Shown here: positions 4,729 through 35,573 of the stretch, one piece after another | Position numbering within the stretch: the first letter of the stretch is position 1 | Layout: each line of letters opens with the position of its first letter | The notes under the pieces: model-generated | The model's input: the letters and a program-made list of their open reading frames with translations, nothing else | Databases searched by the model: none | Told to the model about the DNA's origin: nothing | Translations under genes and position numbers: made by a program | DNA from: Pseudonocardiaceae bacterium | GTDB taxonomy: Bacteria > Actinomycetota > Actinomycetes > Mycobacteriales > Pseudonocardiaceae | Reading direction: 5' to 3' | Length of the DNA stretch: 37,417 nt | NCBI GenBank assembly: GCA_036270375.1 | Contig: DATBCR010000714.1 | Location: 1-37,417, forward strand

Positions 4729-7700
4729 TCACGGCTCCCTGGTCGGCTGAATCTCGTATGTCCGTTGGGAAAGACGGGCCAGGCTCGCACCGACGATCCG
4801 GCCGATCGCGGCCCGCGCGGCGGGATGCAACATGTGGTCGTGGTCGGCCGGGACGTCGTGGCGGACGATCGGCCCGGCAACGTGCGGCACCCAGCGGCGG
4901 ACCCGGTTGGCCGCCTCGCGCTGTGAGATGCCTTCCGTCGCGACGAAGACATCGAGGCCGCCGGGGCGCCGGGCCGGCGTGAACTCCGTGGCCAGGCGGG
5001 TGTACTCGGCCATCGCGGTGAGCAGTCGGGGCAGTCGGGCCGCGTCGACGGCCGCCATGATGCCGCCGCGATCGCGCAGCAGGGCCAGCACGCCGTCCCG
5101 GGTGAGCACCTCGTCGGACAGGCCGGCGCTGTCGAAGCCGACGTTGTCACAGAACTTGGCCAGCAGTTCCCGTTCGGTCGCGACATGCGTTGCGGTGTCC
5201 GGGAAACTGTCGATGGCGGCCACGTAGTCGACCCGCTCCCCCATCGCCGCGAGCAGCGCGGCCATGTCGTGTGCGAGCAGGCCGCCGAACGACCAGCCGA
5301 GCAGGTGGTACGGGCCACTCGGCTGGATTTCCCTGACCAGCCGCACGTATTCGACGGCGAGATCGGCGAGGTCGCCCGCGATCGGGGCGCCGGTGTCGAT
5401 GTGCGGCGACTGGATGCCGTAGATCGGGCGGCGCGGGTCGACGTGCTCACCGAGCCCGAGGTACGGCAGGCTCAGCCCGAGTCCACTGTGGACGCAGAAC
5501 AACGGTGGCAGGTCACCGGTCGGGCGGATCGGCAGCACGGTGGCGAACGGATCGACGTCGACACCGACGCGTTGGCCGCCGACCTCGGCGACCGTGGCGA
5601 GGCCGGCAGGCGTGCGGTGCACGAACAGGTCGGCCACGTCCACCAGCACGCCCGCCCGGGCCGCCCGGTCGACGACCTGCAGCGAGCGGATGCTGTTGCC
5701 ACCGGCGGCGAAGAAGTCGATATCCATGCCAACGCCGGAGATGCCAAGCACGTCCGCGAACACGTCGCACAGGATCCGCTGCACCGCGGTCTCGGGTTGG
5801 CGGGCGTCACGGGTGTCGATCACCGGTGCCGGCAGCCGGCCGCGATCCACCTTGCCGCTGGGGCTGGTCGGAAATTCGGTCAGCCTTACGACGTAAGACG
5901 GCACCATGTAGTGCGGCAGCCTGGCCTCCGCGAACTCACGCACCGAACGGGCCAGTTCGACGGAATCGGACTCGGTGATCACATAGGCGACCAGGGTGTC
6001 GTCGCGAACCGTTGCCGTCGCGGCGATCACGGCGGGATGGGCCGCGATCGTCGACTCGATCTCGCCGAGTTCGATGCGGAAACCACGCAGCTTGACCTGC
6101 TGGTCGGACCGGCCGACGAAGTCCAATTGGCCGTCCGGCAGCCAGCGGACCAGGTCGCCGGTGCGGTAGATCCGGCCACCGGGCGGGCCGAGCGGGTCGG
6201 CAACGAAGCGTTCCGACGTGAGACCTGCCCGGTTCAGGTAACCCCTGGCCAGGCCGCCCGCGACGTACAGTTCGCCGACGACGCCGACCGGCACCGGCCG
6301 CAGCCGCGCGTCCAGCACGGCAACGCGATGTCCGGTCACCGGCCGGCCGATCGGCGGCCGGGCGGCACCGGACAGCGGATCGCTGACCGTCGCCCACACT
6401 GCGGTCTCGGTCGGGCCGTACAGGTTGAGCAGCATGCGACCGGCCGACCAGCGGGCCGCGACCTCCGGCGGGCACGCCTCCCCGGCGACCGCGAGGACGA
6501 GATCGGTCGGCAGGTCGCGGTCGGCCGGCATGGTGCCGAGGACGACCTGTGGCAGCACGGTGTGCGTGACGGCGGCGCGGGTGATCGCGTCGGCCAGCCG
6601 CGCACCGGTGCGGTCGGCGTCGGCCAGCAGCACAAGCGCACCGCCGGTGAACACCGAACCGCACAGCTCCCACACCACGGCGTCGAAAATGGGCGACGCG
6701 AACTGCAGCATCCGGACCGGACGGCCGGTGCCGACGTACGCGGCCATCGCGTGGCCGAGCCCGGCCGCGGCGGAATGCGGGATGACGACACCCTTCGGCC
6801 GGCCGGTCGAGCCGGACGTGTAGATCACGTAGGCGGGGTGGTCCGGTGACAGCGGCGCGGTCCGGTCGGTGTCGGTCAGGTCGGTGGCCAGACCGGTGGT
6901 CGCGTCGGTGTCGTTCGGCGACACCACCGGCAGGCCGGCCGCGTGCAGTCCGGCGGACGTCTCGGGCACGGCGATGCCGCAGACCGGCCGCGCGTCGGCG
7001 AGCACGTAGTCGATCCGGTCCTGCGGCAGCGTCGGGTCGATCGGCAGGAACGCGGCGCCCGCCTTCAGGACAGCGAGCACGGCGACCACGAAGTCCGGCG
7101 TGCGGGGCAGCGCGAGCGCGACGAACGCCTCCGGGCCGACACCCCGCCGCACCAGGACCCTGGCCAGCCGGTTGGCCCGCGCGTCGATGTCGCGGTAGGT
7201 CAGTTCCGCGCCGTCGCACACCACGGCGATGGCGTCCGGCGTGTGCAGCACGTACCGGTCGAACATGCCAGGCAGCGTGTCGCCGACGGGCGTGGCGGTC
7301 GGACCGGCCCATACCCGGGTCACCAGGTTGGTTTCCTGTTCGCTCAACAGGTTCAGCCCGCTGATCCGAGTGTCCACTTCGGTCACGACGGCCCGCAGCA
7401 CGGTGAGCAGCCGACCCGCGATCGACTCGGCCGTGGCATGCGTGAACAGGTCTGTGCTGTACTCCAGCCAGCCGTCAAGGCCCGAGGGTGCGCCGTTGTC
7501 GGTGTGCTCGTCGAACTGGAAATGCAGGTCGCACTTGGCCGACGTGCCGACGATCGGTTCGACGGCGGCGGTGATGCCGGGCAGGTCGAACTCCGGTTGC
7601 CGGTAGTTGCCGAACACCAGCGCCACCTGGAACAGCGCCTCCCGCGCCAGGCTGCGGTCCGGGTTCAACGCCTGGACCACCCGCTCGTACGGCACGTCCT

Positions 7701-10700
7701 GGTGCGCGTACGCGGCGAGATCCGTTTCCCTTGCCCGCCGGACGAGTTCCGCGAACGTCGGGTCGCCGGACGCGTCGACGCGCAGCACGAGCGTGTTCAC
7801 GAACAGGCCGACCATGTCCGCGAGCGCGTTGTCGGTGCGGCCGGCGATCGCGGTGGCCAGCGGGATGTCCGTCGCGCCGGTGAGTTTCGCCAGCAGGGTG
7901 GTGAGCGCGGCCTGGCACACCATGAACAGCGTCGAATCGGCTTTCCTTGCCAGCGCGACGAGATCGCGGTGCAGTTCCGGCGGCACCGCGAAAGCCACCG
8001 AGCCGCCGCGATGGGTGGTGATCGGAGACCTTGGGTGGTCGGTCGGCAGGGCCAGTTCCGGCGGCAGGTCGGCCAGCGCGGTGCGCCAGTAGTCCAACTG
8101 CCGGTTCAGTTCGCTGTCCGGGTCCGCTGGGCTGCCGAGCACCTGGTCGCGGTGCCACATCGTGTAGTCGGCGTAGCGGACCGGCAGCGGCGCCCAGTTC
8201 GGCTCGACGCCGGCCAGCCGCGCCCGGTAGGCCGTGCCGAAGTCACGCATCAGTGGCACGGCGGACCAGCCGTCCGCGACGATGTGGTGCGCGACGACGA
8301 GTAGCACGTGCTCGGTCGGGGCCAGCCGGAACAGCCGTGCCCGCACGGCAAGCCCGTCGGCGAGGTCGAAGTCGCGCACCGTCTCGGCGGCCAGCCGGCC
8401 CGGCAGGTCGGCGGGCGCGACATCGGAAACCGGCAGTTCGACACCGTCGATTTCCAGGACCTGTTGGCGTGGTTCGCCGTCGACGGCCGGGAACACCGTG
8501 CGCATCGCGTCGTGCCGGGCCACCACGTCGGTGAACGCCTGCCGGACGGCGGCGACGTCGAGCTCGCCGGACAGCCGGATCGCAAGCGGCACATGGTAGA
8601 CGCCGTGCGCGGCGCCGAGCCGGTTGACGAACCACAGCCGGATCTGCGCCGGCGACAACGGAACCACGTCGGGCAGGACGCCCAGCCGCAACGCCGGACG
8701 CGGGCCGTCCGCCGCCGCGATCACCCGCGCCAGGCCGGCCGGGGTCGGCGCGCGGAACAGTTCACGGACCGGTAGTTCGACGCCGAACACCGCACGTACG
8801 CGGCTGACCAGCGCCGTACCGAGCAGCGAATGCCCACCGAGGTGGAAGAAGTCGTCGTGCACGCCGACCGACGGCAGCCGCAGCACGTCCGCGAACAGGC
8901 CGCACAGCAACTGTTCGGCGGGCGCTTCGGACTGCTGGGTATCGGCCACCGCGAGATCGGGTTCGGGCAGCGCGTTGCGGTCGGTCTTGCCGCTCGGGGT
9001 CATCGGGAACCGGTCAAGCACCATGATCGTCCCCGGCACCATGTACTCGGGCAGCGCGGCCGACAGGTGCGCGGCCAGCGTCGCGCGGTCCGGCGGGGCG
9101 GCCGGATCGGCCGGCACGACGTAGCCGATCAACCGCACGTCGGCCGGCCCGTACTCGCGGGCGACGACGGCGGCCCGCTGCACGTCCTGGTGCGCGGACA
9201 GCACCGACTCGATCTCGCCGAGTTCGATCCGGAAACCGCGCACCTTCACCTGGTGGTCGGTGCGGCCGAGGAATTCCAGCCCGCCGTCGGACCGCCAGCG
9301 CACGATGTCACCGGTGCGGTACATCCGGGTGCCGGGACCTCCGAACGGGTTGGCGACGAACCGGGTCGACGTCAGGTCGAACCGGTTGAGGTAGCCGCGG
9401 GCGACGCCGACACCGCCGACGTACAGCTCACCGGGCAGTCCCGGCGGGACCGGCCGCAGCGCCGCGTCCAGCACGTAGTGCGTGTAGTTGGCCATCGGGC
9501 CGCCCAGCGACACGCCGATGCGGTCGGCGGTCAGTTCCGTTGCCGTGCACCAGATCGTCGCCTCGGTCGGGCCGTAGACGTTGTACACCTCGCGGGCGCC
9601 CGCGATCAGCGCTTCGGCGAGCGGTTCCGGCAGCGCCTCGCCGCCGGTGATCACCCGCACGGCGGACAGGTCGGCGCCGACGGCGATCAGTGACTGCCAG
9701 CGGCTCGGCGTCGCCTGCACGACGGTCGCGCGGGACGTGCCGATCAGCTCGGCGAGCGCGGCCGCGTCCGTTGCGACGTCGTCGTCCGCCATGACGAGTT
9801 CCGCGCCGACCAGCAGCGGCATGAACAGTTCCGCGTTGGAGATGTCGAAGCCGAACGTGGTCGCGGACACCAGCCGGTCGGATTCGTCAAGGCCGAACCG
9901 GTCGCACATGTCGAGCAGAATGTTGGCCAGCGCGTTGCGCGGCACGACGACGCCCTTGGGCTTGCCGGTCGAGCCGGACGTGTAGATCACGTACGCCGGA
10001 CTGTCCTCTATGGACTCCACTGGCTCGCGCCCGACGGCGTCCGCCAGCACGGCCGGATCGTCCAGCAGGAGTGTCGGTGTGCCGGCAAGACTCGTTTCGG
10101 CCAGCTTCGCCGATGTAGCGCTGTCACTGAGCACCAGCACGGGTGCCGCGTCGGACGCCATCGCGCTGATCCGGTCGACCGGGTGGTGCGGATCGATCGG
10201 CAGGTACGCCGCGCCGCTGGACAAGACCGCGATCGCGGCCACCACCAGGTCGATACCGCGCGGCAGGGCGATCGCGATCAACCGCTCCGCACCGGCACCA
10301 CGGGCCAGCAGGGCGTCGGTCAGCAGGCGCACCCGCGCGTACAGGTCGCGGTAGGTCAGGGTCTCGGCGCCGCAGCGCACCGCGATCGAGTCCGGCGTGC
10401 GCAGGGCTTGGGCGGCCAGCATCGCGGGCACGGACGCCGAACCGAAGTCACGGCCGGTGTCGTTCCAGGTGTCCAGAACGAGTTCGCGGTCCTCCGGCGA
10501 CAGGGCGTCGACCCGGCCGACCGCCACGTTCGGGTCGGTGGCGTACGCGGCAAGCAATCGGTGCAGCCGGTCGGCGATCGCGTCGGCCTGTTCAGGGGTG
10601 AACACGTCCGGCGTGTACTGCACCAGCAGCGTCATCCGGTCGCCGGGCAGCACGGTGAGGCTGAGCGGGTAGCCGGTCGCGGCGCGGACCTCGGAGGAAG

Positions 10701-11808
10701 TCACGCGCAGCCGGTCGCCGATCTTCGCGACGCCTGCGCCGGCCATCGGGTAGCTCTGGAATGTCATGATCGTGTCGAACAGTTCGCCGACGCCCGCTAA
10801 CCGCTGCACGTCGGCGAGGCCGATGTGCTGGTGCGACAACAGGTCCACTTGCTGGTCTCGGACGGCGGCCACGGTGTCGGCGAGGGAGGCGGCCGGGTCG
10901 AGCACGACGCGCACCGGCAGCGTGTTGGCGAAAAGGCCGACCATCGACTCGACGCCGTCCAGGTCCGGCGGCCGGCCGGAGTCGACGGCGCCGAACAGGA
11001 TGTCGCGCTGTCCGGTCAGGCCGGCCAGCAGCATCGCCCAGCACACCCGCAGGACGGAGTTCAGCGTGCTGCCGCCGGCCCGAGCCCGCATACCGATGCG
11101 GGTGGTCAGTTCTTCGGACAGCTCGACCGCGACCGTCGCCGGAACCGTTGGCGGGCCGACGTTTTCGGCGACCCTGGTCGGATCGGTGACATCAGCCAGC
11201 GTCGCCCGCCACGCGGCTTCGGCCGCCGGCACGTCCCGGTCGCGGAGCAGGGCCAGATAGTCGGAGTACGGGCGGATCGGCGTCAGCGCGTCCGGATCGG
11301 CACCGCTGACGTACAGCGCGAGCAGTTCACGCACCACGATCGCCAACGACCAGCCGTCCAGCAGGATGTGATGCACTGTCCACAGTAGACGATATTGGTC
11401 CGGCCCTGTGCGGATCACGGTGGCGCGCACCAGCGGCGGCTGCGCGAGGTCGAAGCGCGCCACCCGGTCGGCGTCGGTGATCCTGGCCAGTTCGGCGGCG
11501 AGTTCGTCGTCGGGCAGCCCGGACAGGTCAACCTCGGCCACGATCGGCGCGACGTCGGCCGGCACCACCTGGACCGGCTGGCCGTTGCGCCGCCGCCGGA
11601 AGCAGGCCCGCAGGGTGGCGTGCCGGCGCAGCAGGCCGGCCGACGCCGTCCGCAGTGCCACGGCGTCCAGCGGACCGACGAGATCCGCGACGAGCTGCAG
11701 CACGTGCGGATCGACGCCGTCGGCCTCGAACTCGGCCCGGAACAACAGGCCCTCCTGCAACGGCGACAACGGCAGGAACTCGCTCGCTCGCTTCGGCTTC
11801 GCCTTCAT
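4729..11808 (-). CDS. NRPS, modules 3-4 with terminal thioesterase: C-A-T-C-A-T-TE
   Basis: First C: [12 protein letters not shown] and HHILLDGWS. First A: [15 protein letters not shown]. First T: [10 protein letters not shown]. Second C: [10 protein letters not shown] and HHIVADGWS. Second A: [15 protein letters not shown]. Second T: [13 protein letters not shown]: GWSFGG. The basic N-terminus (MKAKPKRA) fits a docking acceptor. GAGGAG lies 5 nt before the ATG. Confidence 0.97.
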
Positions 11809-11838
11809 GGATGCTCCTCAGTGCACGAAATCCAGCTA

Positions 11839-14800
11839 TCAGTCCAGTCCGAATGCCAGCTCGTCGGCCTCGTCGTCGGCCAGCGAGAGCAGTGGAAGTG
11901 CGATTGATTCGCTGAGCGATTCGGTGGTTGAGAGACCCGCAGCGGTCGCACCGACCACCGAACCGACCAACGTCCGTGCCACGCCGGCCAGCGCGGCCAC
12001 GGTACGGTGCCGGAAAACAGCTCCGACATCGATCTCGACGCCGGCCAGCCGCGCCCTGCCGACGACCTGGATCGAGTTGATGGAATCCCCACCCAGTACG
12101 AAGAAGTCGTCGTCCAGCCCGACCCTCGGCACGCCGAGCACGGCGGCGAACACCGTGCACAGCACCTCCTGCGTCGGTGTCACCGGCTCCCGGCCGCCCC
12201 ACAGTTCCAGCAGGTCCGGGTCGGGGATCGGCAGCGCGTCCCGGTCCAGCTTGCCGTGCGCGGTCAGCGGCAGCGCGTCGACGACGAGCACGGTTGCCGG
12301 CACCAGGTAGCCGGGCATCCGTTGGCCCAGCAGGAAACGCAGCTCCGCGGGATCTGGTTCGGCGGCGGCCACCACGTAGCCGACGAGTTTCGCGTTGCCG
12401 GCCGCGTCGTCGATCACGCGCGCGGCGGCGTCCGCGATCCCGTCCAGTGCACGGAGCCCGGCCTCGACATCGCCCAGTTCGATCCGGTGGCCACGCACCT
12501 TCACCTGGAAGTCCCTGCGTTCCAGGAACTCCAGCTGGCCGTCCGGCCGCAGTACGACCAGGTCACCGGTGCGGTACATCCGCGCCCCGGCACCGGCGAA
12601 CGGGTCGGCGACGAACGTCGCGGACGACTTGACCGGGTCGCGCAGGTAGCCGCGGCCGACGCCGGTGCCACCGACGTACAGCTCGCCGGGCACACCGGGT
12701 GGGACCGGGCTCAGCTCGTCGGACAGCACGTACAGCAGGGTGTTGCGGACGGCACGGCCGATCGGCACGCGCGTGCCAGATATCGTTGCGCCGCTTACGA
12801 AGGCGTGTGTCACGTCGTCCGAGCACTCGGTCGGGCCGTACGCGTTGAGCAGTGGGATCCCGGCGAACCTGGCCGCCCAGCGGCGGCACAGGTCCGGCGG
12901 CAGCGCCTCGCCGGTCACCGCGAGCCACCGCAGTGTCGTCAGTGCCGGCATCCGCGCGCCCGCGTCCCAGTCGTCAAGGGTGGCGCGCAGCAGCGACGGC
13001 ACGACCTCTAGTACGGAGACCTCGTCAATGTCCACAGTGGATAAAAGCGCTGTCGGATCACCAGAGGTCTCCCGGGTCACCACGCGGACGGAGCCGCCGG
13101 CGAGTAGCGCGGCCAGCATCTGCCACACCGAGATGTCGAACGTGACGGGAGCGTTGTGCACCACTATGTCGCCCGCGCCGAGCGCGAGATCCTCGACCTT
13201 GGCCAGCAGGTGGTTGACCATGCCGCGCCTGGTTACCATGGCGCCCTTGGGTCGGCCGGTCGAACCGGACGTGAAGATGACGTAGGCAAGATCGTTCGGC
13301 GCGCCGAGCGTCGGGGCGAGATCGGTGAGCGGATCGGTGACCTCGTCCAGCACCATGATCTCCACCGGGTGGTGGGCGGCGGCAGCGACGTGCTCGGCGA
13401 GCGAGCACAGCGACCGGGACACCAGCAGCACGTCCGCGTGCGAGTCGGCGAGCACGGTCGCGGTCCGCGCGATGGGCGCGTGCACGTCCAGCGGCACCCA
13501 CGCGGCCCCCGCGCCGAGCACGCCGAGCACGGCGGCGACGAAACCGGTGCCCGGCTCGGCGAGCACAGCGGCGAGCCGCACGCCGGTCAGTCTGCGGGTG
13601 ATCGCGCTGGCCCGGCCGACGAGCCGCGCGTAGTCCAGCGTGCCGCTGTCGTCGGACACGGCTCGGGTTTCCGGCGCTGCCATGGCGATCACGCGGATCG
13701 CGGTCACCACGTCGCCGTCCGGTTCCGGTTGCCGCACACCCGCGACGGGCAGCCAGTCCTCGGGGGTCGGCAGCACATCCAGACCGCCCAGCCTGCGGTT
13801 CGGGTGGGCTACGGCCTCGGCGAGTAGGCGGACCATCGCGTCGGCGAATCCGGCGACTCTTTCGCGGTCGAACACGTCCGGCGCGTGGTCGAACCGTAGC
13901 CGCAACTGTTGGCCGGGTAGGACGACGAGGCTCAGCGGATAGTGCCGGGCGTCCCGTGCCCATGTCCGCGTGACCCGCATGCCGCGTGTCTCGCCAGCCA
14001 ACGCCGTCGCGTCGGTCGGGAAGTTCTCGAACACCACGGCCGTGTCGAACGGCTCCCCGGCACCCGCGAGCGCCGGCACGCCGGACCGCAGCCGGGCCAG
14101 GCCGACGTGGTGGTGCGGCGCCATCGTGGTCCACTGCCGCTGCAACTGCCGGCACAGCGCCACGATCGACGTGCCGGGTGTGGTCGCCGCGCGCACCGGC
14201 ACCGTGTTCAGGAACATGCCGACCATCACGTCCGAGCCGGCCACCTCCGGCGGCCGCACGGCGACGGTCGCGCCGAACAACACGTCCTGCTTGCCGGTCA
14301 GCCGCCCGACCAGCACGGCCCAGCAGCCCTGTACGACGCTGTTCACGGTCAGGTCCGCCGCGCCTGCGAACTTTCCAAGAGCCGCGGTCAACTCGGCCGA
14401 CAGGTCGACGGTGACGGAGTCCGGCAGCACGGCGGTCCGGTCGGCGCCGGGCGCCACTGTCGACGGTCCCGAGACACCGGCGAGCAGTTCCCGCCACGCG
14501 TCGAGCGCCGCCGCACTGTCCTGTTCGGACAGCCAGCGCAGGTAGTCGGCGTACGGTGGCACGGCGGGCAGGCCGGCCGCGACCGGATCGCCATCGGTGC
14601 CGTAGAGGGCGAACAGTTCGCGTGCCAGGATCGGCATCGACCAGCCGTCCACCAGGATGTGGTGTACTGTCCACAACAGACGGTGCTGATCGGGCGCGGT
14701 ACGCACCAGAGTGCAGCGCATCAGCGGCGGCGCGCTCGGATCGAACCGGCGGACGCGGTCCGCGTCGGCCAGCCGGGCCAGTTCCGCGTCCTGGTCGGCG

Positions 14801-17800
14801 ACATCCGTCAGGTCGATCACCGTGACGTCGATGTCGACCGTCGCCGGGATCACCTGCACCGGGTCGCCCGACACCCGGAACCGGAAGCCGGCGCGCAGGT
14901 TGGGATGCCGGTCCAGCAGCGCTGCCACGGCGGCGCGCAGCGCGGCGACGTCCGTCGGGCCGGCCAGGTCGGCGAGGATCTGCAGGTTGTAGACCTCGTC
15001 GCCGGTCCGGTCGAACTCGGCGTGGAACAGCAGGCCTTGCTGCAAGGGTGCCAGCGGCAGCACGTCGGCCAGACCGTTCGGCTCGGCTTCGAGCGCGGAC
15101 AGTTCGTCCTGCGTGATGTCGACCAGCGGCAGGTCGGACGGCGTGCGCCCGCCCGCGCCGTCCGCGGCGGCGTGCTCGACCAACACGGCCAGTGCGCGGA
15201 ACCAGGTGCGGGCGATGTCTTCCGCGTCGGCGTCGGCCAGGATCTCCCCGGCCCACAGCCAGTCGGCGACCAGGTGTGGGCCGTCGGCGCGGTCCTGGGT
15301 CAGTGGTGTGACGGCCAGGACGTGCCGCAACGGCAGCGTGGGGCCGGTCGCCGTGCCGACGCCGACATCGCCGTCCAGCCGCCACAGCGCATCGGTGTGC
15401 GCGGTTTCGAAGCGGCCGAGGTAGTTGAAGCCGAGTTGCGGCCGGGTTTGGAGTGTGGGGTCGTCGGCGGAATCAGTGAGGTGGCGCAGGATGCCGTAGC
15501 CGATGCCGTGGTCGGGCAGTGCCCTGCGCTGTTCCTTGACGCGCTTGAGAAGCGTGCCCGCCGCCGCGCCGCCGGCCCATGCGTCGGCCAGGTCCAGTTC
15601 GCCGGGATCGAGGGACAGCGGGAAAACGGTGGTGAACCAGCCGACCGTGCGGGACAGGTCGACGTCGTCGGCGATGTGCTCGCGGCCGTGGCCCTCCAGT
15701 TCCACCAGCACTCTGGAGTGGTCACGACGCCAATCGGCAACCGCCATACACAGGGCGGCGAGCAACACGTCGTTGATCTCGGCGTGGAATCGGGCCGGCA
15801 CGACGGTCAGCAGCGGGATCGTCGTGTCGGGCGGGAGTTCGAGCCGCAGCGAGTGAGCCGTGCCGTACGTGTCCCGGGTCGGGTCGAGTGCGCGGGTGCC
15901 GAGCAGCGGGTCGGGACCGGTCAGTTGTGCCTGCCACAGTGGTAATTCCGCTGTCCTGGCACCGGTTTCCGCCTGCTCGGTGAGCAACGCGGACCACCGA
16001 CGGTAGGACGTCGGAACCTGTTCGAGCGCTGGTGCGCCAGGCTCGCATGCGGCTTCGAGATCGGGTACCAGGACGCGCCAGGACACGCCGTCAACGACCA
16101 GATGGTGCACCATCAGCAGCAGTTCGGCGGTGCCGTCCGGCCGGCGGAACAGCGTTGCCGCGACGTTGCGCCCGGCGGCGGGGTCGAGCCGCGCGCGGGT
16201 CGCGTTGACGCGGGCGAGCCGGGCGGGGTCGGCGGTCGTGGCGAGCAGCCGATCGGTCGGGGTGTCGCCGGGTGGTGGCACAGTGAGTGTCCATTGAGGA
16301 CCAAGCACCATCCGGAGCGCGTCGTGCCGCTCGACGATGGTGGCCAGTGCCGTGGCCAGGGTCCGCTCAGTCAGGTCGGCCGGCACCGGCAGCACAACGT
16401 ACTGGGCGTAGTCCCGCATCGCGGCCGGGTCGGCTGCCGTGTCCTCGCGGAGTTGGTGCGCGATCGGCGTCGGTGCGAACTCGCCGACGCCGTCGTCCAC
16501 GACGTGGGCGCGCGGGTCGACCGGCACGGCGGCGCGCGCGATCGCGGCCGGTGTCTTGTGGGTGAACACGTCGTTCGGCGTGATCAGCAGGCCGGCCCGG
16601 CGTGCCCGGCTGATCGCCTGGATGGCCACGATGGAGTCGCCGCCGAGGGCGAAGAAGTTGTCGTCGACGCCGATCCGGTCCAGGCCGAGCGCATCGGCGA
16701 ACGCGGCGCACACCGCGCGTTCCCGGTCGTTCGCCGGCGCCCGGCCTGCGGGTGCGGCGCCGAGATCCACGTCCGGCAGCGCGGCGCGGTCCAGCTTGCC
16801 GTGCGCGGTGAGCGGCAGCTCGGCCAGCACGGCGATCGTCGACGGGACAAGGTGATCAGGCAGCCGGCCGGCCAGTGCCGTGCGCACCGCCGTGCCGTCC
16901 AGCTGGTCGGCGGCCGGCGTGACGTAGCCGACCAGCCTGCGGTGCCCGGTGCGGTCCGCGCGTACCGCGACCGCCGCGTCCGCGATGCCCGGCAGGTCGC
17001 GCAGGGCGGCCTCGATCTCGCCGAGCTCGATCCGGTGACCGCGAATCTTGACCTGGAAGTCCCTGCGTTCCAGGAACTCCAGCTGTCCGTCCGAGCGCCA
17101 GCGGACCCGGTCGCCGGTGCGGTACATCCGCGCGCCATCGGCCGCGAACGGGTCGGGCAGGAACGTCGTCGCCGTGCGGCCGGGGTCATGCAGGTAGCCC
17201 CTGCCGACACCGACGCCGCCGACGTACAGCTCGCCCGGCACGCCGCACGGCACCGGCAGCAGTTCGTCGCCGAGCACGTACAACCGGGTGCCACGCACCG
17301 GCCGGCCGATCGGTGTGCGCCCGACGACGGGTGCGCGGCCGTCCAGTACGGCGTGCGTGACGTCGTCCGAGCACTCGGTGGGGCCGTAGGCGTTGACGAG
17401 CGGCACTTTCGGGAACCGGTCCGCCCAGCGGTCGCACAGGTCCGGCGGCAACGCCTCGCCGGTCGCCACCAGCCAGCGCAGCGCGGACAACTGCGGCTGC
17501 GTCCCACCGGCGTCCCACCAGTCCAGCGCGGCGCGCAGCAGCGACGGCACGACCTCCAGGACCGTGACGGCTCGCCGGTCGGCCAGCCCGAACAGCTCCT
17601 CCGGCGACGCGGCGACGTTCTTCGGGACAACCGTCGTGCGGCCGCCGACCGCGAGTCCCGCAAGCATCTGCCACACCGAGATGTCGAACGTGACGGGGGC
17701 GTTGGCGATGATGTGGTCGGCGTCGGTGAGCCCCAGATCGTCCACTTTGGCCAGTAGGTGGTTGCCCATGCCGCGCCGGTGCACCATGGCGCCCTTGGGC

Positions 17801-20633: not shown

Positions 20634-20650
20634 GGTGACCTCCTTCGCGC

Positions 20651-21679: not shown

Positions 21680-21748
21680 TTGTCTGCTCCCTCTCAAGAA
21701 CCGGATGGCTCTGCCCGCCCGGACGTCACCCACTGTCGCCAACGCCGC

Positions 21749-21777
21749 TGACACGTCGCTGAGCCGCGACTGATGGG
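21749..21777. promoter_or_regulatory. Three heptamers at exact 11-bp phasing (TGACACG-N4-TGAGCCG-N4-TGATGGG) in the divergent sbnB / response-regulator intergenic region; candidate SARP operator
   Basis: Read directly: repeat starts at 21749, 21760 and 21771. The same architecture and the same heptamer TGACACG recur at 35633-35661. On the minus strand a -10-like GACAGT (21737..21732) follows after 11 nt. Confidence 0.4.
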
Positions 21778-21847
21778 TGCCGCGCGGGGCGTCGGGAGCC
21801 GATAGATTGAGTGGGCCAGCAACTCCACCGAGCGAAAGCAGCAGCCC

Positions 21848-22510
21848 ATGCGTGTCGCCCTCGCCGAGGACCAGTACCTGCTCCGGGACGGCATCAGTCG
21901 GCTGTTGGAGGCCAACGACTTCGAGATCGTCGCCGCGGTCGGCAGCGGCCCCGAAATGCTGGACGCGATGCGCGAGCACCAACCGGACATCAGCATCGTG
22001 GACATCCGACTACCACCGACATTCACCGACGACGGCCTACAGGCGGCGCTGGCGGCCCGGCGGACACATCCGGGCCTGCCGGTGCTGTTGCTGTCCCAGT
22101 ACGTGGAGCAGCTCTACGCCAAGGAGTTGCTGGAGAGCGGCAACGGCGGGGTCGGCTACCTGCTCAAGGACAGGGTGTTCAACAGCGACCAGTTCGTGTC
22201 GGCGTTGCGGCAGGTCGCGTCCGGCGGCACCGTGATGGACCCGGACGTGATCGCGAAGCTGTTGTCCCGCAACGCGAACGAGAGCATCGTCGCTCGGCTC
22301 ACGCCCCGTGAACTTGAAGTGCTCGGACTGATGGCCGAGGGCAGGTCGAACATGGCGATCGCGGCCGCCCTTGTCGTGACGGAACGCGCGGTCGCCAAGC
22401 ACATCAACAACATCCTGGCAAAACTGGACCTGCCACCGTCCGAGGACGACAACCGTCGGGTGCGGGCGGTGCTCGCGTATCTCGAGCACGGCGTGATCCC
22501 GAACTCCTGA
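21848..22510 (+). CDS. Response regulator, NarL/FixJ (LuxR-type HTH) family
   Basis: Receiver domain (VALAEDQ, acceptor Asp in DISIVDIRLPP, LLKD) plus a C-terminal HTH (LTPRELEVLGLMAEGRSNMAIAAALVVTERAVAKHINNILAKL). Confidence 0.95.
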   Translation: MRVALAEDQYLLRDGISRLLEANDFEIVAAVGSGPEMLDAMREHQPDISIVDIRLPPTFTDDGLQAALAARRTHPGLPVLLLSQYVEQLYAKELLESGNGGVGYLLKDRVFNSDQFVSALRQVASGGTVMDPDVIAKLLSRNANESIVARLTPRELEVLGLMAEGRSNMAIAAALVVTERAVAKHINNILAKLDLPPSEDDNRRVRAVLAYLEHGVIPNS

Positions 22511-22542
22511 CCCCTTGTTGGGTCAGGAGTTCGGGATCACGC
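22491..22542. terminator. Perfect 22-bp inverted repeat with an 8-nt loop, overlapping the last codons and stop of the response regulator; likely bidirectional terminator
   Basis: gcgtgatcccgaactcctgacc (22491-22512), ccttgttg, ggtcaggagttcgggatcacgc (22521-22542). I verified the arms base by base as exact reverse complements. Confidence 0.6.
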
Positions 22543-22544
22543 AC

Positions 22545-22641
22545 TCACCGCCAGTGGGTCCGTGCGGCCCAGTTTGCCGGAGAGCAGGCCGGGTCGGTCC
22601 AGTCCTGTTCCGCCTTGTCCGGCCGGCTCCGGTTGGCGAGG
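22545..22641 (-). pseudogene. Decayed 3'-end fragment of an acyl-CoA dehydrogenase gene (paralogous copy of 23957-24002 plus 24268-24318)
   Basis: 22545-22590 matches 23957-24002 at 42/46 nt and encodes GLLSGKLGRTDPLAV*, against GLLSGKLDRTDPLAVSA* in the intact gene. 22591-22641 matches 24268-24318 at 44/51 nt and encodes LANRSRPDKAEQD in a different frame. About 265 bp between the two pieces is missing. Confidence 0.8.
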
Positions 22642-22652
22642 CACCGGGTGGA

Positions 22653-30439: not shown

Positions 30440-32112
30440 GGTGTCGCCACCAGCTTGGCGAGACCTCGGGCGCCACGCCGGCCCGCGCCACGGCTGATCC
30501 GCAGCGGATCCCAGTCGCCGGGCCGATCCGGCAGCAGGTCCGGCGAGCCGAGCACGGCACCGGCATGCACCTCGCGCAGCAGATCCGTGCCCAGCACGGC
30601 GGACGCGCAGGCGAGGCCGCTGACGCCGGACCGCACGATACCGGCACCGAACCGGGTGCTCTGCCCGGCGACGTACAGTCCGTCGACGGCGGTCACCACG
30701 TCCGGCAGCTGCGCCATGCCGCTCCACCGCGCCATGCCGTACGGCGTGCCGCCGGAGGACCGGGTGTAGCGCTCGTTCGTCAGCGGCGTCGAGGTTTCGA
30801 CATGCACGATGTGGTCGCGGAACGGCCCGATCACCTCGGCCGCCCGGTCGAGCAGCGCCTCGGTGAGCTGTTGCTTGATCCGCTGGTACTCCGGGTCGCG
30901 GCGGTAGCGGACGCCGGCGACCGGGCCGCCGGTCAGGCCCCACGGCTCGTATCCCGACGGGCACAGCGTCATCACCTGGAAGTTCGTCTGGCCCGGCGGG
31001 CATGCCGGTCCGCCGGGCCTGTCCTTGAGCGACGCGAAGGACAGGAACACGAACTGCGGGTCGGTGATGTTGCCGTCGGCCAGCTTGCGGAACGCCTCGT
31101 CGACGTCCTCGCACGGCCAGTACCAGTAGTTCGCGTCCGGCACGTCGGCCAGTTCCTTGTCCAGCGCCACATACACCGCCGCCAGCGGCAGCCGCATCTC
31201 GGCGTTGGTGGCGCGTCGGACGTCCAGTTCCGGGAACGTGTCGATGCCGCCGGCCAGTTCCAGCACCGTCCTGCGGTAGTCCGCGTTGGAGATCACGATC
31301 GGCGCGCGCAGCTGCGTGCCGTCGGCCAGCCGCACACCGGTCACCCGGCCCTTGGTCGACTCGATCCGCGACACGGTTGCCTTCGTCCACAGCCGCGCGC
31401 CGTGTGCCTCGAGAACTTCGACGAGCGTCGCCGCGACCTGCTGGCCGCCACCTTCCGGGTAGTAGCTGCCGCGCAGGTAGTCGTCAAGCATGGTGGCGTG
31501 CGTCGCCAGCGGTGTCACGGCGGGTGCGGCTCCGTAGTTGCCGCACTGCGCGTTGATGACGGTCCTCGCCCGCGTCGACAGTCCACAGTGGTCATACAGT
31601 TTGTTGACCGGCCGCAGGATCCACCGCAGGACTTCGCCGCCGGGCGGCGCCGACTTCGGCCCGATCAGGTTGTTGCGCGCGGCGGCCGCGGCCGCCGACG
31701 CGATGCGCACGAACGTCGCGATGCCCGCCGCGTCCGCCGGCAGCGCCTCGGTCAGCCGCTGCTGGTAGCGCGACCAGCCGAACGGCACGTCCACCGTGAC
31801 GCTGGGCAGGATGATCCGGTCGAAGCAGTCGGAATCCATGGGGCGGAACGTGATCCGGTCCGCCGCACCGAGACCGGCGAGCAGCGCGGGCAGCAGCCCG
31901 TCCGGTCCGCAGTCGCCGAGGTAGTGCACGCCCACGTCGAACTCGTAGGACCTGCGCCGCCGGAACACATGCGTGTTGCCGCCGGCCACATCGTGTTGTT
32001 CCAGCACCAGGGCCCGTCGCCCGGTGACGGCGAGATACGCGGCGGCGACGAGGCCACCCATGCCGGCGCCGATCACGATGACGTCCCAGTCGCCGTCCAT
32101 GTCATGAGCCAT
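30436..32112 (-). CDS. FAD-dependent oxidoreductase of the phytoene desaturase (CrtI-like) family
   Basis: N-terminal dinucleotide fold WDVIVIGAGMGGLVAAAYLAVTGRRALVLEQHDVAGGN, about 558 aa, and a C-terminal LYVAGQSTRFGAGI motif typical of CrtI-type amine-oxidase-fold enzymes. Confidence 0.8.
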   Translation of the reverse strand: MAHDMDGDWDVIVIGAGMGGLVAAAYLAVTGRRALVLEQHDVAGGNTHVFRRRRSYEFDVGVHYLGDCGPDGLLPALLAGLGAADRITFRPMDSDCFDRIILPSVTVDVPFGWSRYQQRLTEALPADAAGIATFVRIASAAAAAARNNLIGPKSAPPGGEVLRWILRPVNKLYDHCGLSTRARTVINAQCGNYGAAPAVTPLATHATMLDDYLRGSYYPEGGGQQVAATLVEVLEAHGARLWTKATVSRIESTKGRVTGVRLADGTQLRAPIVISNADYRRTVLELAGGIDTFPELDVRRATNAEMRLPLAAVYVALDKELADVPDANYWYWPCEDVDEAFRKLADGNITDPQFVFLSFASLKDRPGGPACPPGQTNFQVMTLCPSGYEPWGLTGGPVAGVRYRRDPEYQRIKQQLTEALLDRAAEVIGPFRDHIVHVETSTPLTNERYTRSSGGTPYGMARWSGMAQLPDVVTAVDGLYVAGQSTRFGAGIVRSGVSGLACASAVLGTDLLREVHAGAVLGSPDLLPDRPGDWDPLRISRGAGRRGARGLAKLVATP

Positions 32113-32127
32113 CTTGGAAACCGCCTC

Positions 32128-32868
32128 TCAGACCGTCAGACCGCCGTGCACCTCGACCACGCTGCCGGTCAGGTACGCTGCGCGGTCGGACACCAGGAAC
32201 GACACCAGCTCGGCCACCTCGTCGGCCCGGCCGAGCCGGCGCAACGGGATGCCGCCCAACAACTTCTCCCGGGCCGTGGCCGGCATGCCCGCGACCATCT
32301 CGGTGTCGATCAGGCCCGGCGCGACCACGTTGGCCCGGACACCGAACGGTCCGGCCTCCTTGGCCAGTGCCCTCGTGAAGCCGATGATGCCGCTCTTGGC
32401 GGCCGAATAGTTGACCTGCATGGCATTGCCGTACACACCAGCCACAGAGGACAGTGTCACGACGACGCCCCGCTTGCGCTTCATCATGTCGAACACCACC
32501 GGCCGGCACACGTGGAAGACGCCGTCCAGGTTGGTGCGCAACACGTCCGTCCAGTCCGCGTCGGACATCCGCGCCAGCATGCCGTCCCGCGTGATGCCCG
32601 CGGACGCCACGACCGCCGTGACGGGGCCGAGTTCTTGTTTCACCTCGGCCGCCCACTCGCGGGCCTGCCCGGCGTCGGCGACGTCGACCCTGGTGGCCAG
32701 CACCCGGCCGCCGTGCTCGGCCGCCTGCTTGGCGACCAGCGTCGCCGCGGATTCGTCGGCGCGGTAACAGAAGCCGACGTCGAAGCCGTCCTTGGCGAGG
32801 CGCAGCACGCAGGCCGCGCCGATGCCCCTCGACCCGCCGCTGACCAACGCGACACCCTGTCCGCCCAT
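32128..32868 (-). CDS. fabG: 3-oxoacyl-ACP reductase (SDR, FabG-like)
   Basis: 246 aa from MGGQGVALVSGGSRGIGAA, with NLDGVF, SSVAG and YSAAK (the Ser-Tyr-Lys triad). Its start overlaps the KSbeta stop (TGATG). Confidence 0.92.
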   Translation of the reverse strand: MGGQGVALVSGGSRGIGAACVLRLAKDGFDVGFCYRADESAATLVAKQAAEHGGRVLATRVDVADAGQAREWAAEVKQELGPVTAVVASAGITRDGMLARMSDADWTDVLRTNLDGVFHVCRPVVFDMMKRKRGVVVTLSSVAGVYGNAMQVNYSAAKSGIIGFTRALAKEAGPFGVRANVVAPGLIDTEMVAGMPATAREKLLGGIPLRRLGRADEVAELVSFLVSDRAAYLTGSVVEVHGGLTV

Positions 32869-34007
32869 CACACACCCACCGGAATCCGCTTGTCCGCCAG
32901 AGCATCCGAGCCGGCATCCGAGCAGACGTGTGGTACGACAAGCACGCAGCTGACCGCGCCGTCGTCGTCGGACGACGCGATGACCGCTGGCGTCTCGGCG
33001 ATCGACGGGTCGGACTCGACCATCGCGAGCAGCGCGACGAGCGCGAACAACCCGGCCGCCGACGCGGTGTCGCCGATCAGTTCGGACAACCGGACCCGGC
33101 CGGTCGCCGGACCGCCGAACACGTCGCGCAGCGCGGTGTCCTGCCCGGCGTCGGCCGAACTGGCCACCGCGGTGTGCACGTCGGCCGGCGCGATGCCCGC
33201 GGTTCGCAACAGTCCGCCGACCGCGCGCAGGGTCGTCGTGCGCACGTCGTCCACCGGGCCGGTACCGGAGCCGAAGCCGAGGACGGTGGCCAACGGCCGG
33301 TCGCCTCGGGCCGTGACGGCGTCCAGGGTTTCCAGCGCCACCATGGCGCAGCCCTCGCCGAGCGGCACGGTCGGCTGCGCACCGCCGCGCGCACACCGTT
33401 CCAGCAGCGACCGGTCCGCGCTGAACTCCTCGACGGCACCGCACAGCACCCGCCGGGCGCGACCGGTGACCAGCAGCCGCCGCGCGTAGTTCAATGCGTG
33501 CGGGCCGGTGTTGCGGCCGGCCGCGATGGTCGCGTTCGGTCCCTTGATCTGGTGCCAGATCGCGACCTGGCCTGCGGCGCAGTTCATCACGCAGTACGGC
33601 ACCAGCGCCGGCTCGATGTGGTCGGGCCGTTCGCCGACCAGCGACGCCCTTGTCAGGCCCATCATGCTGGCGACACTGCCGGTCGTCGTGCCGAGCACGA
33701 CGGCGGTGTGCTCGCCGGTGGTGTCCACGCCGTCCGGGTGTTCGGCGAGGCGCGCCAACAGGTCCGCCGCCGTCACGACGGCCAGCCCGCTCGCCCGGTT
33801 CATCGCGCGAACCTTCTTGTCGCCCAACGCCTTGCGCACGTCGAAGTCGGGCACAAGGCACGCGGACACGTCGTCGACTGCCCACCGCTCCCGACTTGGT
33901 GCCTGTGCGGTGGCGCGGCCGGCCAACAGACCGGCGGCGAACTCGGCCGGTCCGCTGCCGAACGGGGAGATCGCCGACCAGGCGGTAACCGCGAGAGGTT
34001 AGTTCAT
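32868..34007 (-). CDS. KSbeta / chain-length-factor-like ketosynthase partner (no catalytic Cys); in-frame TAA at codon 3
   Basis: The track ORF starts at TTG 33926. KS-homologous sequence (PLAVTAWSAISPFGSGPAEFAAGLLAGR, aligning with KSalpha VVITGCGVVSSIGMGVREFGAALRAGR) continues in frame up to a TAA at 34001..33999. That TAA is preceded by ATG-AAC, and the ATG (34007..34005) overlaps the KSalpha stop. The active-site position reads ATIAAGRNTG (Cys to Ala). Confidence 0.75.
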
Positions 34008-35284
34008 CACAGCGCCCCCGTTCCGATGGCGGCCGTGTGATCGTCATAGCGACCGAGGATCACGACCGAGTTGTTGCCGCCGAACGCCCAGCCGTTGTTC
34101 TGCACGATCCGCAGGTCCGCGTCGACCGACTCGTTCGGCACGCAGTCCACCGCGCACTCCGGGTCGGTTTCGCGGTGGTTGACCGTCGGCGGGATGAACC
34201 CGTCGGTGATGGCCAGCGCGCAACCGATCGCGGCCAGCGCGCTCGCGGCGCCCATGGTGTGGCCAAGCATCGACTTCATGGACACGACGCGGGGCAGCCG
34301 GGCGCCGTACAGCTCCCGGATCGCCCTGGTCTCCGCGAGGTCGTTGGCCTTGGTTCCGGTGCCGTGCGCGGAGATCAGGTCGACCTCCTCCGGCTTCACG
34401 CCTGCGTTCTCCAGCGCGAGGTTCATGCAGCGGGCGATCCCGGGCTGGTGCGGCGCGACCGGGTGGTACGCGTCGCAGGACAGCCCGTAGCCCAACACCT
34501 CCGCGTAGATCCGGGCGCCACGGGCCAGTGCGGACGTCAGGCTCTCCAACATCACCACGCCCGCGCCCTCGCCGGTGAGGATGCCCATCCGGTTGACGTC
34601 GAACGGCCGGCAGCAGTCCGGCGCGATGCTGCGCAGCCGGTAGAAACTGGCGAACGTCTTGCGGCACACCGCGTCCGCGCCACCGCACAGCGCGAAGTCC
34701 GCGTCGCCGAGGCGGATCGCGTCGAACCCGTTGCCGATCGCGTAGTTGCCAGCGGAGCAGGCGGTCGCGATCGTGGTCGGCTCGACGTCCACGAGGCCGA
34801 GCTCGCCCGCGATCGCGGTGGACAGCCGGGCCGGCGACACCCGGCGTGCCGTCGCCTGGTCCATACCAGTGAACCCGCCGGCCAACTCCTGTTCCACCAA
34901 CGTGTCCAGGTCCCGGCTCTCGCCGTCGGTGGTGCCGACGGAGAGCACTCCCCTCCGCTCGCGCAGCCAGCCGCCGTCCAGGCCCGCGTCGGCGACGGCC
35001 AACCGGGCCGCGGCCACCGAGAACCGGCTCGCCCGGCCGATGTCGGCGAGGTCGACGTCGTGGATCCAGTCCTCGGGCCGGAAACCGGCCACCTCGGTCC
35101 CGTTGCTGTGCGCGAAACCGGTGGTGTCGAACGCCCCGATGGGCGTCACGTTGCTCCGGCCGGCCCGCAGCGCGGCACCGAACTCACGCACACCCATGCC
35201 GATGCTGGACACGACACCGCAACCGGTGATGACGACGCGGCCGGTGCCGTCGTGCCGTTCCTGGTCGGTCAGCTGTGCAGCCAT
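34007..35284 (-). CDS. KSalpha, beta-ketoacyl-ACP synthase I/II type
   Basis: 425 aa from MAAQLTDQERHDGTGRVVITGCGVV. Catalytic residues: ATACSAGNYAIG (Cys), ISAHGTGT (His) and SMLGHTMGAAS (His). Confidence 0.93.
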   Translation of the reverse strand: MAAQLTDQERHDGTGRVVITGCGVVSSIGMGVREFGAALRAGRSNVTPIGAFDTTGFAHSNGTEVAGFRPEDWIHDVDLADIGRASRFSVAAARLAVADAGLDGGWLRERRGVLSVGTTDGESRDLDTLVEQELAGGFTGMDQATARRVSPARLSTAIAGELGLVDVEPTTIATACSAGNYAIGNGFDAIRLGDADFALCGGADAVCRKTFASFYRLRSIAPDCCRPFDVNRMGILTGEGAGVVMLESLTSALARGARIYAEVLGYGLSCDAYHPVAPHQPGIARCMNLALENAGVKPEEVDLISAHGTGTKANDLAETRAIRELYGARLPRVVSMKSMLGHTMGAASALAAIGCALAITDGFIPPTVNHRETDPECAVDCVPNESVDADLRIVQNNGWAFGGNNSVVILGRYDDHTAAIGTGAL

Positions 35285-35321
35285 CGCCGATCCCTTCTGC
35301 GCGTACAAGGTTTGTTGTCGG

Positions 35322-35573
35322 TCACCAGCCGGCCAGACCGGCGACGACCCCGTACGCGCTGCGCACGTCGACCATCTCGGCGAAGTTCTCGTCGTCGATC
35401 TCGACGCCGTACTCCTTCTCCAGTGCTGCCAGCACATCCATCAGGGACAGCGAGTCTGCCTCGTGGTCCTCGCGGAAGCTGCTGGTCTCCGTGACGTCGA
35501 CGGCATCCAGTTCCAGGTGCTCGCAGACGATTTCCTTGATGCGGTCCATCCGATCCGACAGCGCGGCGCTCAT
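35322..35573 (-). CDS. Acyl carrier protein (ACP1), first gene of the operon
   Basis: 83 aa with DHEADSLSLMDVLAALE (the DSL Ser motif). GGAGGACAC precedes the ATG. Confidence 0.92.
   Translation of the reverse strand: MSAALSDRMDRIKEIVCEHLELDAVDVTETSSFREDHEADSLSLMDVLAALEKEYGVEIDDENFAEMVDVRSAYGVVAGLAGW

Follow-up and report, generated by a model that had tools for sequence, protein, structure and literature searches.

The 37,417-nt contig DATBCR010000714.1 from a Pseudonocardiaceae bacterium (assembly GCA_036270375.1), hereafter the window, contains with a probability of roughly 0.8 a complete gene cluster of the enamidonin/autucedine/olenamidonin type, which would specify a cyclic lipotetrapeptide. 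What sets it apart from the family is mainly a group of five additional genes, the probable task of which is to make a different lipid tail. Gene calling relied on third-position GC content (the G+C content of the window is ~70%) followed by assignment with Pfam, and nearly all genes lie on the minus strand. Twelve form an operon that runs from 35573 down to 23949 on this strand, neighbouring genes being separated by no more than 37 bp or sharing overlapping stop and start codons, in the order acyl carrier protein 1 (ACP1), ketosynthase (KS), chain length factor (CLF), ketoreductase (KR), CrtI-like flavoprotein, ketoacyl-ACP synthase III (KASIII)-like protein, ATP-grasp ligase, pyridoxal 5'-phosphate (PLP)-dependent decarboxylase, ACP2, degenerate KASIII-like protein, small acyl-CoA dehydrogenase (ACAD)-like protein and ACAD. 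A second minus-strand operon encodes SbnB, SbnA, two nonribosomal peptide synthetases (NRPS-A and NRPS-B), an ABC-2 permease, a histidine kinase, a membrane protein, an MbtH-like protein and an ABC ATPase, and the plus-strand gene of a LuxR-type response regulator separates the lipid operon from this 2,3-diaminopropionate (Dap)/NRPS operon. An earlier note on this DNA had given the ends of the cluster exactly (4729 is the stop of NRPS-B and 35573 the start of ACP1), and the 12-gene operon that it described is real, consisting of closely packed genes. The genes that it listed were likewise found; a DddA-like toxin/Imm1 pair, the LuxR-type regulator, the lack of a dehydratase and a stop at codon 3 of the CLF gene had gone unmentioned.

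The backbone of the family, to which the K97-0239 compounds also belong, is given in the olenamidonin paper as D-Dap-L-Dap-Gly-Phe, with the acyl chain attached through an NH-CH=CH-CO (dehydro-beta-alanine) unit. This unit has otherwise been reported only in the bolagladins, and the N,N-acetonide ring of the published structures is an acetone artefact. The enamide chromophore absorbs near 266 nm; autucedine A has the formula C31H45N7O6, from which C28H41N7O6 follows for an acetone-free octanoyl congener. The ole cluster is stated by its authors to be identical to the aut cluster (Streptomyces olivaceus), and the Aut/Ole proteins correspond to WP_194276129-WP_194276149. Table S6 of that paper begins with a histidine kinase, a transporter, MbtH, ABC, a phosphopantetheinyl transferase (PPTase), a SARP-family activator and an ornithine cyclodeaminase-type protein, continues with KASIII (309 aa), ATP-grasp (480 aa), decarboxylase (427 aa), ACP (92 aa), a hypothetical protein (296 aa) and two ACADs (234 and 387 aa), and ends with a regulator, a Dap protein, two NRPSs and ABC. 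The middle block, OleH-OleN, recurs in the window as seven genes in the same order, encoding proteins of 308, 459, 435, 92, 275, 190 and 391 aa; the 275-aa protein measures 296 residues from stop to stop, comparable to the 296 aa of OleL. Both clusters also have two NRPSs for D-Dap, L-Dap, Gly and Phe (or a Phe-like residue), SbnA/SbnB-type Dap genes, and genes for a SARP, a LuxR-type regulator, MbtH, a histidine kinase and ABC transporters. They differ in that the window adds ACP1, KS, CLF, KR and the CrtI-like flavoprotein, which are absent from the published ole list, and is without a gene for a PPTase. The position of the Dap genes differs as well: OleG lies upstream of OleH in ole, whereas both Dap genes stand just upstream of the NRPS genes in the window. 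The Ole proteins are 34-75% identical to their own best database matches (Table S6), and, as a proxy for direct comparison, Streptomyces loci with the same polyketide synthase (PKS)-less layout are 49-68% identical to the cassette and Dap genes of the window.

Because ole shares this run of seven genes, with unchanged order and closely similar sizes, as well as the accessory genes, the statement of the earlier note that this gene set corresponds to no lipopeptide cluster that could be named does not hold. A described cluster with the same core content exists, including the two-NRPS logic and the Dap genes, the match being one of order, sizes and annotations in a published gene list. A scan of representative genomes for homologues of the ATP-grasp ligase gave 92 relatives, from which 80 loci were fetched. 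That the window encodes a new hybrid pathway without a described counterpart, with the ATP-grasp ligase, the decarboxylase and the ACADs as unconnected tailoring enzymes, appears highly improbable. Although the published ole list is without the ACP-KS-CLF-KR-CrtI-like genes and the best locus in a representative genome is only 39-83% identical, the ordered correspondence to OleH-OleN stands against that reading, as do an NRPS logic that gives the published backbone and the presence of the beta-alanine/enamide cassette in 66 of the 80 fetched loci.

Peptide assembly and diaminopropionate supply

The reading of the two NRPSs as four modules, from an N-terminal condensation (C) domain in the starter position to a terminal thioesterase (TE), is borne out by Pfam domains and core motifs. 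NRPS-A (11839-19635, minus strand; 2598 aa) has the organisation C(starter position)-A(Dap)-T-E-C-A(Dap)-T, where A, T and E denote adenylation, thiolation and epimerisation domains, and Pfam counts three Condensation-family, two AMP-binding and two PP-binding domains in it. The motif HHIVGDG of the first C domain is located at residue 136, and the E domain carries HHLVVDG at 1177 and EGHGR at 1314, plus RTVGWF and FNYLG. NRPS-B (4729-11808, minus strand; 2359 aa) was assigned on the same grounds as C-A(Gly-like)-T-C-A(Phe-like)-T-TE, with GWSFGG in the TE domain. Specificity codes were read from an alignment to GrsA, in which the anchors D235 and K517 took their expected places. The codes of the first two A domains, DIWEVTADDK (A1) and DIWEATADDK (A2), each hold two acidic pocket residues and are Dap-like. 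In 20 related loci the first A domain has the A1 code as well, and most of these loci have SbnA/SbnB inside the fetched flank. In NRPS-B, A3 reads DIAQIGVIWK, which resembles the canonical Gly code, and A4 reads DAWTAALVWK.

The presence of a Dap pathway inside the cluster was confirmed by two scores above the NCBIfam equivalog cut-offs. The SbnA-type PLP enzyme (19632-20633, minus strand; Pfam PALP) reached 379.1 bits against TIGR03945 (cut-off 349.95), and the SbnB-type dehydrogenase (20651-21679, minus strand; Pfam OCD_Mu_crystall) reached 419.7 bits against TIGR03944 (cut-off 326.9). Together, SbnA and SbnB would provide L-Dap. Because of the codes, the position of the E domain and these two scores, the peptide is predicted to consist of D-Dap, L-Dap, Gly and an aromatic (Phe-like) residue. 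The acyl-(D)-Dap-Dap-Gly-X peptide proposed in the earlier note is thus supported by the module order, the E domain and the specificity codes.

The biosynthetic steps proposed here and below derive from homology and from the published family, except for the family assignment of SbnA and SbnB, which is based on curated cut-offs. The N-terminal C domain of NRPS-A would move the lipid unit onto the first Dap, which would be epimerised to the D form. L-Dap, Gly and the Phe-like residue would then be added, and the TE would close the macrolactam. According to our reading of the published NMR data for the family, the lipid would be carried by the side-chain nitrogen of the first Dap, and the ring would be closed by its alpha-nitrogen.

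Tuberactinomycins such as viomycin and capreomycin also obtain Dap from SbnA/SbnB-type enzymes, and their macrolactam is closed through a Dap amine. The window differs from these systems: it is without their lipid-free pentapeptide logic and without capreomycidine or ureido genes, and its NRPSs have four modules, not five, and start with a C domain.

The dehydro-beta-alanine cassette

The ATP-grasp ligase, the decarboxylase, the ACAD pair and the KASIII-like proteins are neither isolated extras nor components of a fatty acid synthase, but constitute a known lipid-linked dehydro-beta-alanine cassette. All of its genes are on the minus strand. The ATP-grasp ligase (28116-29495, OleI counterpart; Pfam PreAtp-grasp, CPSase_L_D2 and ATP-grasp), the PLP-dependent decarboxylase (26807-28114, OleJ counterpart; Pfam Orn_Arg_deC_N and Orn_DAP_Arg_deC) and ACP2 (26525-26803, the same size as OleK; Pfam PP-binding) are adjacent, and a 92-aa ACP2 gene of identical size was also called in two metagenome contigs (L082 and L083). 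Among proteins of solved structure, the decarboxylase is closest to BtrK (E 4.6e-84), which is annotated as "L-glutamyl-[BtrI acyl-carrier protein] decarboxylase"; diaminopimelate decarboxylases follow with only E 2.7e-48. Because BtrK is the best match by this wide margin, the three proteins resemble a trio of the BtrI/BtrJ/BtrK type, which would produce an omega-aminoacyl-ACP. Judged by the compounds of the family, their product should be beta-alanyl-ACP from aspartate. We infer that the ligase loads the amino acid onto ACP2 and that ACP2 is the carrier of the beta-alanyl unit. Specifically, the ligase would attach an acidic amino acid (aspartate by family analogy) to ACP2 via its side-chain carboxyl group, and the BtrK-like decarboxylase would strip off the alpha-carboxyl group to leave beta-alanyl-S-ACP2, in parallel to BtrJ, BtrI and BtrK.

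The butirosin cluster likewise encodes three such proteins side by side, namely a small ACP (BtrI), an ATP-grasp ligase (BtrJ) and a PLP decarboxylase (BtrK); the ligase of the window was assigned by its Pfam domains. BtrJ and BtrK use glutamate and yield 4-aminobutyryl-ACP, whereas the family product of the window implies aspartate and beta-alanyl-ACP. A trio making a 4-aminobutyryl starter, fed by the KASIII-like protein into a type II PKS, was considered and rejected, since the cassette works in ole/aut without any PKS and the family product has an N-acylated C3 amino unit.

The KASIII-like acyltransferase (29513-30439; Pfam ACP_syn_III_C) is the counterpart of OleH/AutS, to which the olenamidonin paper assigns the N-acylation step. 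In an alignment with FabH, the Cys and one His of the active site are kept and the Asn is changed to His (GHCFCAD against GNTSAAS). Because the catalytic Asn is replaced by His, the residue pattern points to acyl transfer rather than decarboxylative condensation. The 275-aa protein at the position of OleL, annotated there as hypothetical, is encoded at 25693-26520 and has no Pfam match. Its AlphaFold2 model (mean pLDDT 87.3) has a KASIII/FabH fold, and the best Foldseek matches of the model are FabH, MxnB, CorB and PqsBC (E 5e-10 to 7e-9). The alignment of its homologues reads D-Q-G at the site of the FabH-type active-site Cys. This protein probably accompanies the KASIII-like acyltransferase without being active itself, perhaps within a dimer, in the way that PqsB accompanies PqsC. 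A word-based search with it returned 18 relatives only, none of them from S. olivaceus. The acyltransferase (Cys-His-His), probably paired with this dead KASIII-fold protein, would N-acylate the beta-alanyl amine.

The last two genes of the operon would introduce the double bond. The ACAD family protein (23949-25124, OleN position; Pfam Acyl-CoA_dh_M and Acyl-CoA_dh_1) has acryloyl-CoA reductase as its best NCBIfam model (E 1.5e-34, under the cut-off), and a matching gene call was found in L083. Its small ACAD-like partner (25124-25696, OleM position) has no Pfam or NCBIfam match. It was recognised by stop/start overlaps with both neighbours and by its conservation beside the ACAD, next to which it is kept in most loci with 32-57% identity. 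The ACAD is inferred to convert the (N-acyl-)beta-alanyl-ACP into the enamide by creating a 2,3-double bond, with which its acryloyl-CoA reductase match is consistent, and the pair would thereby deliver an N-acyl-dehydro-beta-alanyl thioester to the NRPS.

A cassette of KASIII, ATP-grasp, decarboxylase, ACP and ACAD genes was also observed in Cellulosimicrobium and relatives (L056-L062, L065 and L067-L069), where neither Dap genes nor an NRPS recognisable as Dap-type were seen close by. In these loci, the acyl-(dehydro)-beta-alanine unit is probably used for different products that have not been described.

Five additional genes and the lipid tail

The earlier note had ascribed a custom acyl chain to the operon as a whole. 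This would most likely hold for the five genes outside the published ole list, the other operon genes being the enamide cassette described above. All five are encoded on the minus strand. ACP1 (35322-35573; 83 aa), preceded by a GGAGG ribosome-binding site, matches Pfam PP-binding and NCBIfam acyl carrier protein models and would be the carrier for a type II KS-CLF. The ketosynthase (34007-35284; 425 aa) has 6kxd_A as its best PDB match (E 3.4e-160, 63.4% identity), and its Cys/His/His motifs are visible in the alignment; it resembles Iga11 from a type II PKS of the highly reducing kind. Its CLF-like partner (32868-33998), the natural start of which reads as disrupted in this assembly, is Iga12-like with 6kxd_B as the best match (E 2.6e-53, 37% identity), and Pfam sees the ketoacyl-synt N-terminal domain only. 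The PDB series 6KXD/6KXE/6KXF is the highly reducing KS-CLF of ishigamide, a tetraenoyl-beta-alanine with a polyenoyl chain. The FabG-type ketoreductase (32128-32868; 246 aa) matches Pfam adh_short_C2 and KR and the NCBIfam 3-oxoacyl-ACP reductase (E 9e-83). The fifth protein (30436-32112; 558 aa) is a flavoprotein of the CrtI/CrtISO/RetSat family according to Pfam (NAD_binding_8 and Amino_oxidase), with NCBIfam matches below the cut-off to carotenoid isomerase and crtI_fam. Gamma-carotene desaturase and phytoene dehydrogenase are its best PDB matches. Its homologues number 639, the nearest at 77% identity, with hundreds in actinomycetes at 53-62%; an exact-sequence look-up gave no identical record. 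It probably desaturates or isomerises the acyl chain, although we regard this role as a guess. Literature searches on phytoene-desaturase-like enzymes together with type II polyene synthases gave no useful link.

The system shares with that of ishigamide (Iga10-Iga13 and Iga16) the related KS and CLF (63% and 37% identical to Iga11 and Iga12, respectively), a dedicated ACP, a FabG-type KR and, as predicted for the window, an acyl chain that ends amide-linked to beta-alanine. In contrast to ishigamide biosynthesis, the window is without an Iga16-type dehydratase and adds the CrtI-family flavoprotein, and the chain would be passed to the NRPS and not released. None of the fetched Streptomyces loci is the ishigamide cluster itself, all being 63-65% identical to Iga11. 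ACP1, the Iga11/Iga12-like KS-CLF, the KR and the CrtI-like flavoprotein most likely make or tailor a dedicated acyl chain beyond primary fatty acids. Because no dehydratase is encoded, this chain would either be hydroxylated, or lose water through a housekeeping FabZ before the flavoprotein desaturates or isomerises it.

At least three modes of lipid supply were found among the related loci. The first is without a PKS, as in ole/aut (L004, L021, L035, L042 and L043), the second has KS-CLF, two FabA-like dehydratases and a KR (L011 and L015), and the third consists of ACP-KS-CLF-KR-CrtI-like without dehydratase. The third mode is that of the window, an Amycolatopsis metagenome-assembled genome (L001), A. 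minnesotensis (L002), L008 and L082. The nearest relatives of the window are metagenome contigs and Amycolatopsis genomes, and its host is probably an uncultured Amycolatopsis-like actinomycete, in contrast to the Streptomyces host of ole/aut. An identical order of 18 genes is present in L001 (39-83% identity) and in L082 (57-89%), which is the nearest relative, and the same lipid operon was also found in L002 and L008. Because the dehydratase-less arrangement is conserved across these diverged loci, its conservation argues that the layout is functional.

A further group of 13 Amycolatopsis loci (L017, L020, L022-L024, L026-L028, L038, L039, L045, L075 and L079) has SARP, ACP, KS, CLF and KR genes followed directly by the ATP-grasp gene. 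These loci are without decarboxylase, second ACP, KASIII-like protein and ACAD, and continue with SbnB, SbnA, transporters and NRPS genes, so that their ATP-grasp ligase may serve a different function.

Several points weigh against the proposed assignment. The cluster is known from its genes alone, no product having been observed, and the ole/aut match is drawn from a gene list. OleQ has 2183 aa, whereas NRPS-A has 2598 aa and is thus ~400 aa longer, so that their domain content may differ. The A4 code agrees with the Phe code of GrsA at 6 of 10 positions and is Phe-like only. By Pfam, the 37.4-kb window contains no FabA/FabZ/MaoC-type dehydratase gene, and the lipid operon leaves no free space for one; malonyl transferase and PPTase genes are likewise absent from the window. 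The CLF gene reads ATG AAC TAA at 34007-33999, with an in-frame stop at codon 3, where L082 reads ATG AAC GGG. The conserved N-terminus of CLF follows directly after the TAA, and use of the next canonical start would drop 24 conserved residues. This TAA may be a true nonsense codon or may stem from an error in the assembly, and the KS-CLF pair may be inactive in this organism on its account. The site is covered by no second assembly. Finally, in Saccharothrix sp. AJ9571 (L085, CP091382.1 6274249-6295946), a CrtI-like protein with 60% identity is encoded beside ACP, small ACAD, ACAD, SbnA and NRPS genes, with no KS-CLF and no ATP-grasp gene within 10 kb of it. Because this CrtI-like gene stands by the beta-alanine cassette without KS-CLF, the flavoprotein need not be strictly tied to a type II synthase.

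The altered CLF start bears on the possibility that the core pathway is kept while the KS-CLF-KR-CrtI-like genes are crippled or decaying, with ordinary acyl chains being drawn from primary metabolism as for the autucedines and olenamidonins. The PKS-less ole/aut cluster yields complete lipopeptides from C7-C13 acyl donors; no canonical start saves the CLF N-terminus, and no dehydratase gene is present. On the other hand, the rest of the CLF frame is open over 376 codons with 89% third-position GC, the same dehydratase-less layout occurs with intact CLF starts in L001, L002, L008 and L082, and the TAA could be an assembly error. We consider such decay unlikely.

With regard to the chain itself, the synthase might make a conjugated polyene as in ishigamide, with a housekeeping FabZ dehydrating the chain and the CrtI-like protein isomerising or desaturating it further. 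The close relationship of the KS to the polyene-forming Iga11 speaks for this tentative alternative, and CrtI-like genes stand beside KS-CLF in NRPS clusters that have FabA-like dehydratases (L081) or several KS genes (L084). However, polyene-forming type II systems normally own dehydratases (two each in L011 and L081), whereas the window and its four closest relatives have none. KS-CLF and KR alone could instead give a 3-hydroxy or poly-hydroxy acyl chain. The KR is the sole companion of KS-CLF in a layout conserved in five loci, and the pachycephalamide paper proposes KS-CLF and KR alone for 3,5,7-trihydroxy fatty acids in an Amycolatopsis strain. However, that precedent is itself a hypothesis only, a purely hydroxylated chain would leave the CrtI-like flavoprotein without a role, and the described family members have plain chains; we regard this alternative as rather doubtful. 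Our own, likewise tentative, proposal is that the conserved dehydratase-less set of Iga-like KS-CLF, KR and CrtI-like protein may represent an undescribed lipid-tail route, by which a hydroxylated or flavin-desaturated chain would be joined through the enamide to the Dap-rich ring.

Other lipopeptides were compared as well. Pachycephalamide was rejected as the product because it is a pentapeptide without Dap. Cinnamoyl lipopeptides of the skyllamycin/WS9326/kitacinnamycin type, the clusters of which contain several KS-CLF pairs, dehydratases, an isomerase and a long NRPS, were also rejected, since a single KS-CLF pair and only four modules are encoded in the window, which is without a dehydratase and an isomerase. 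Kutzneridine A from Kutzneria sp. CA-103260 is described as a cyclic lipopeptide that shares the acetone-derived N,N-acetonide artefact of the enamidonins; papers citing kutzneridine or this strain gave no structure or gene list. A locus of another strain, Kutzneria sp. NPDC052558 (L081, JBIUAG010000005.1 375272-396954), has ACP-KS-CLF-DH-DH-KR-CrtI-like genes (DH, dehydratase) and a methyltransferase gene between NRPS genes, and the codes of its A domains are the Dap code of the window, one for Gly and one for Phe. This locus could be related to the kutzneridine cluster, although it differs from the window in having two dehydratases and no beta-alanine cassette within 10 kb.

The main value of the analysis is to correct the view of the cluster as an unmatched pathway, and the lipid tail is not predictable from the sequence. 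Enamidonin-class lipopeptides are reported to inhibit multidrug-resistant enterococci at 1.56-6.25 ug/mL, and their activity is said to depend on the acyl chain length. A natural variant with lipid-building genes of its own is therefore a sensible target for new congeners, and if the proposed lipid-tail route is correct, the enamidonin-class antibiotics of this Amycolatopsis-like lineage are new in structure. Should the five additional genes also be part of the kutzneridine cluster, the window represents just another member of the family. The three modes of lipid supply, together with a cassette that is widespread in actinomycetes, provide a framework for mining the family and open no new biological question.

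Regulatory, export and inserted genes

The LuxR-type response regulator between the two operons (21848-22510, plus strand, OleO position; Pfam Response_reg and GerE) has counterparts of 80-89% identity in L001 and L082, which are syntenic. A SARP-family activator (35670-36578, plus strand; Pfam BTAD and Trans_reg_C) is divergent from the lipid operon and is 64-71% identical at the same position in these two loci. Downstream of NRPS-B, the minus strand encodes the ABC-2 permease (3313-4149; Pfam ABC2_membrane), the sensor histidine kinase (1887-3239; Pfam Sensor, HisKA_3 and HATPase_c), a polytopic membrane protein (704-1870; 388 aa), the MbtH-like protein (489-716; Pfam MbtH, E 4.8e-26), which is the OleC counterpart, and the ABC ATPase (1-492; Pfam ABC_tran), which runs off the window edge. 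The export and sensing genes have the counterparts OleA, OleB, OleD and OleS in Table S6. The 388-aa protein, located between the histidine kinase and MbtH genes, is rich in Ala, Val and Gly and showed ~7 hydrophobic stretches in a hydropathy scan; it has no Pfam or NCBIfam match and no counterpart in the fetched loci.

A 1.41-kb cassette outside the pathway (22541-24002, minus strand) is inserted in the interval from the stop of the ACAD gene to the response regulator. Its products are a 250-aa deaminase toxin that is DddA-like and hence of the double-stranded-DNA type (23078-23830, minus strand; Pfam DddA-like, E 2e-32) with the motifs H-V-E and P-C-x6-C, and an Imm1 immunity protein (22653-23087, minus strand; Pfam Imm1, E 1.6e-25). 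The cassette is flanked by a 50-nt direct repeat (22541-22590 and 23953-24002, 90% identical) that duplicates the final 50 nt of the ACAD gene, and it is absent from L001 and L082, in which the corresponding gap is 20-100 bp. The insertion is genuine, because the independent 8,976-bp metagenome contig L083, which is 99.79% identical to window positions 22694-31669, also carries it. A search with the toxin sequence against solved structures found no relative and one spurious repeat match. Judging by the sequence, this small toxin begins with ~100 residues of helical appearance, which are followed by a Pro/Ala-rich linker. A perfect 23-nt inverted repeat with a 6-nt loop (22491-22542) is located between the end of the response regulator gene and what remains there of a copied ACAD 3' end, and it looks like a bidirectional terminator older than the toxin insertion.

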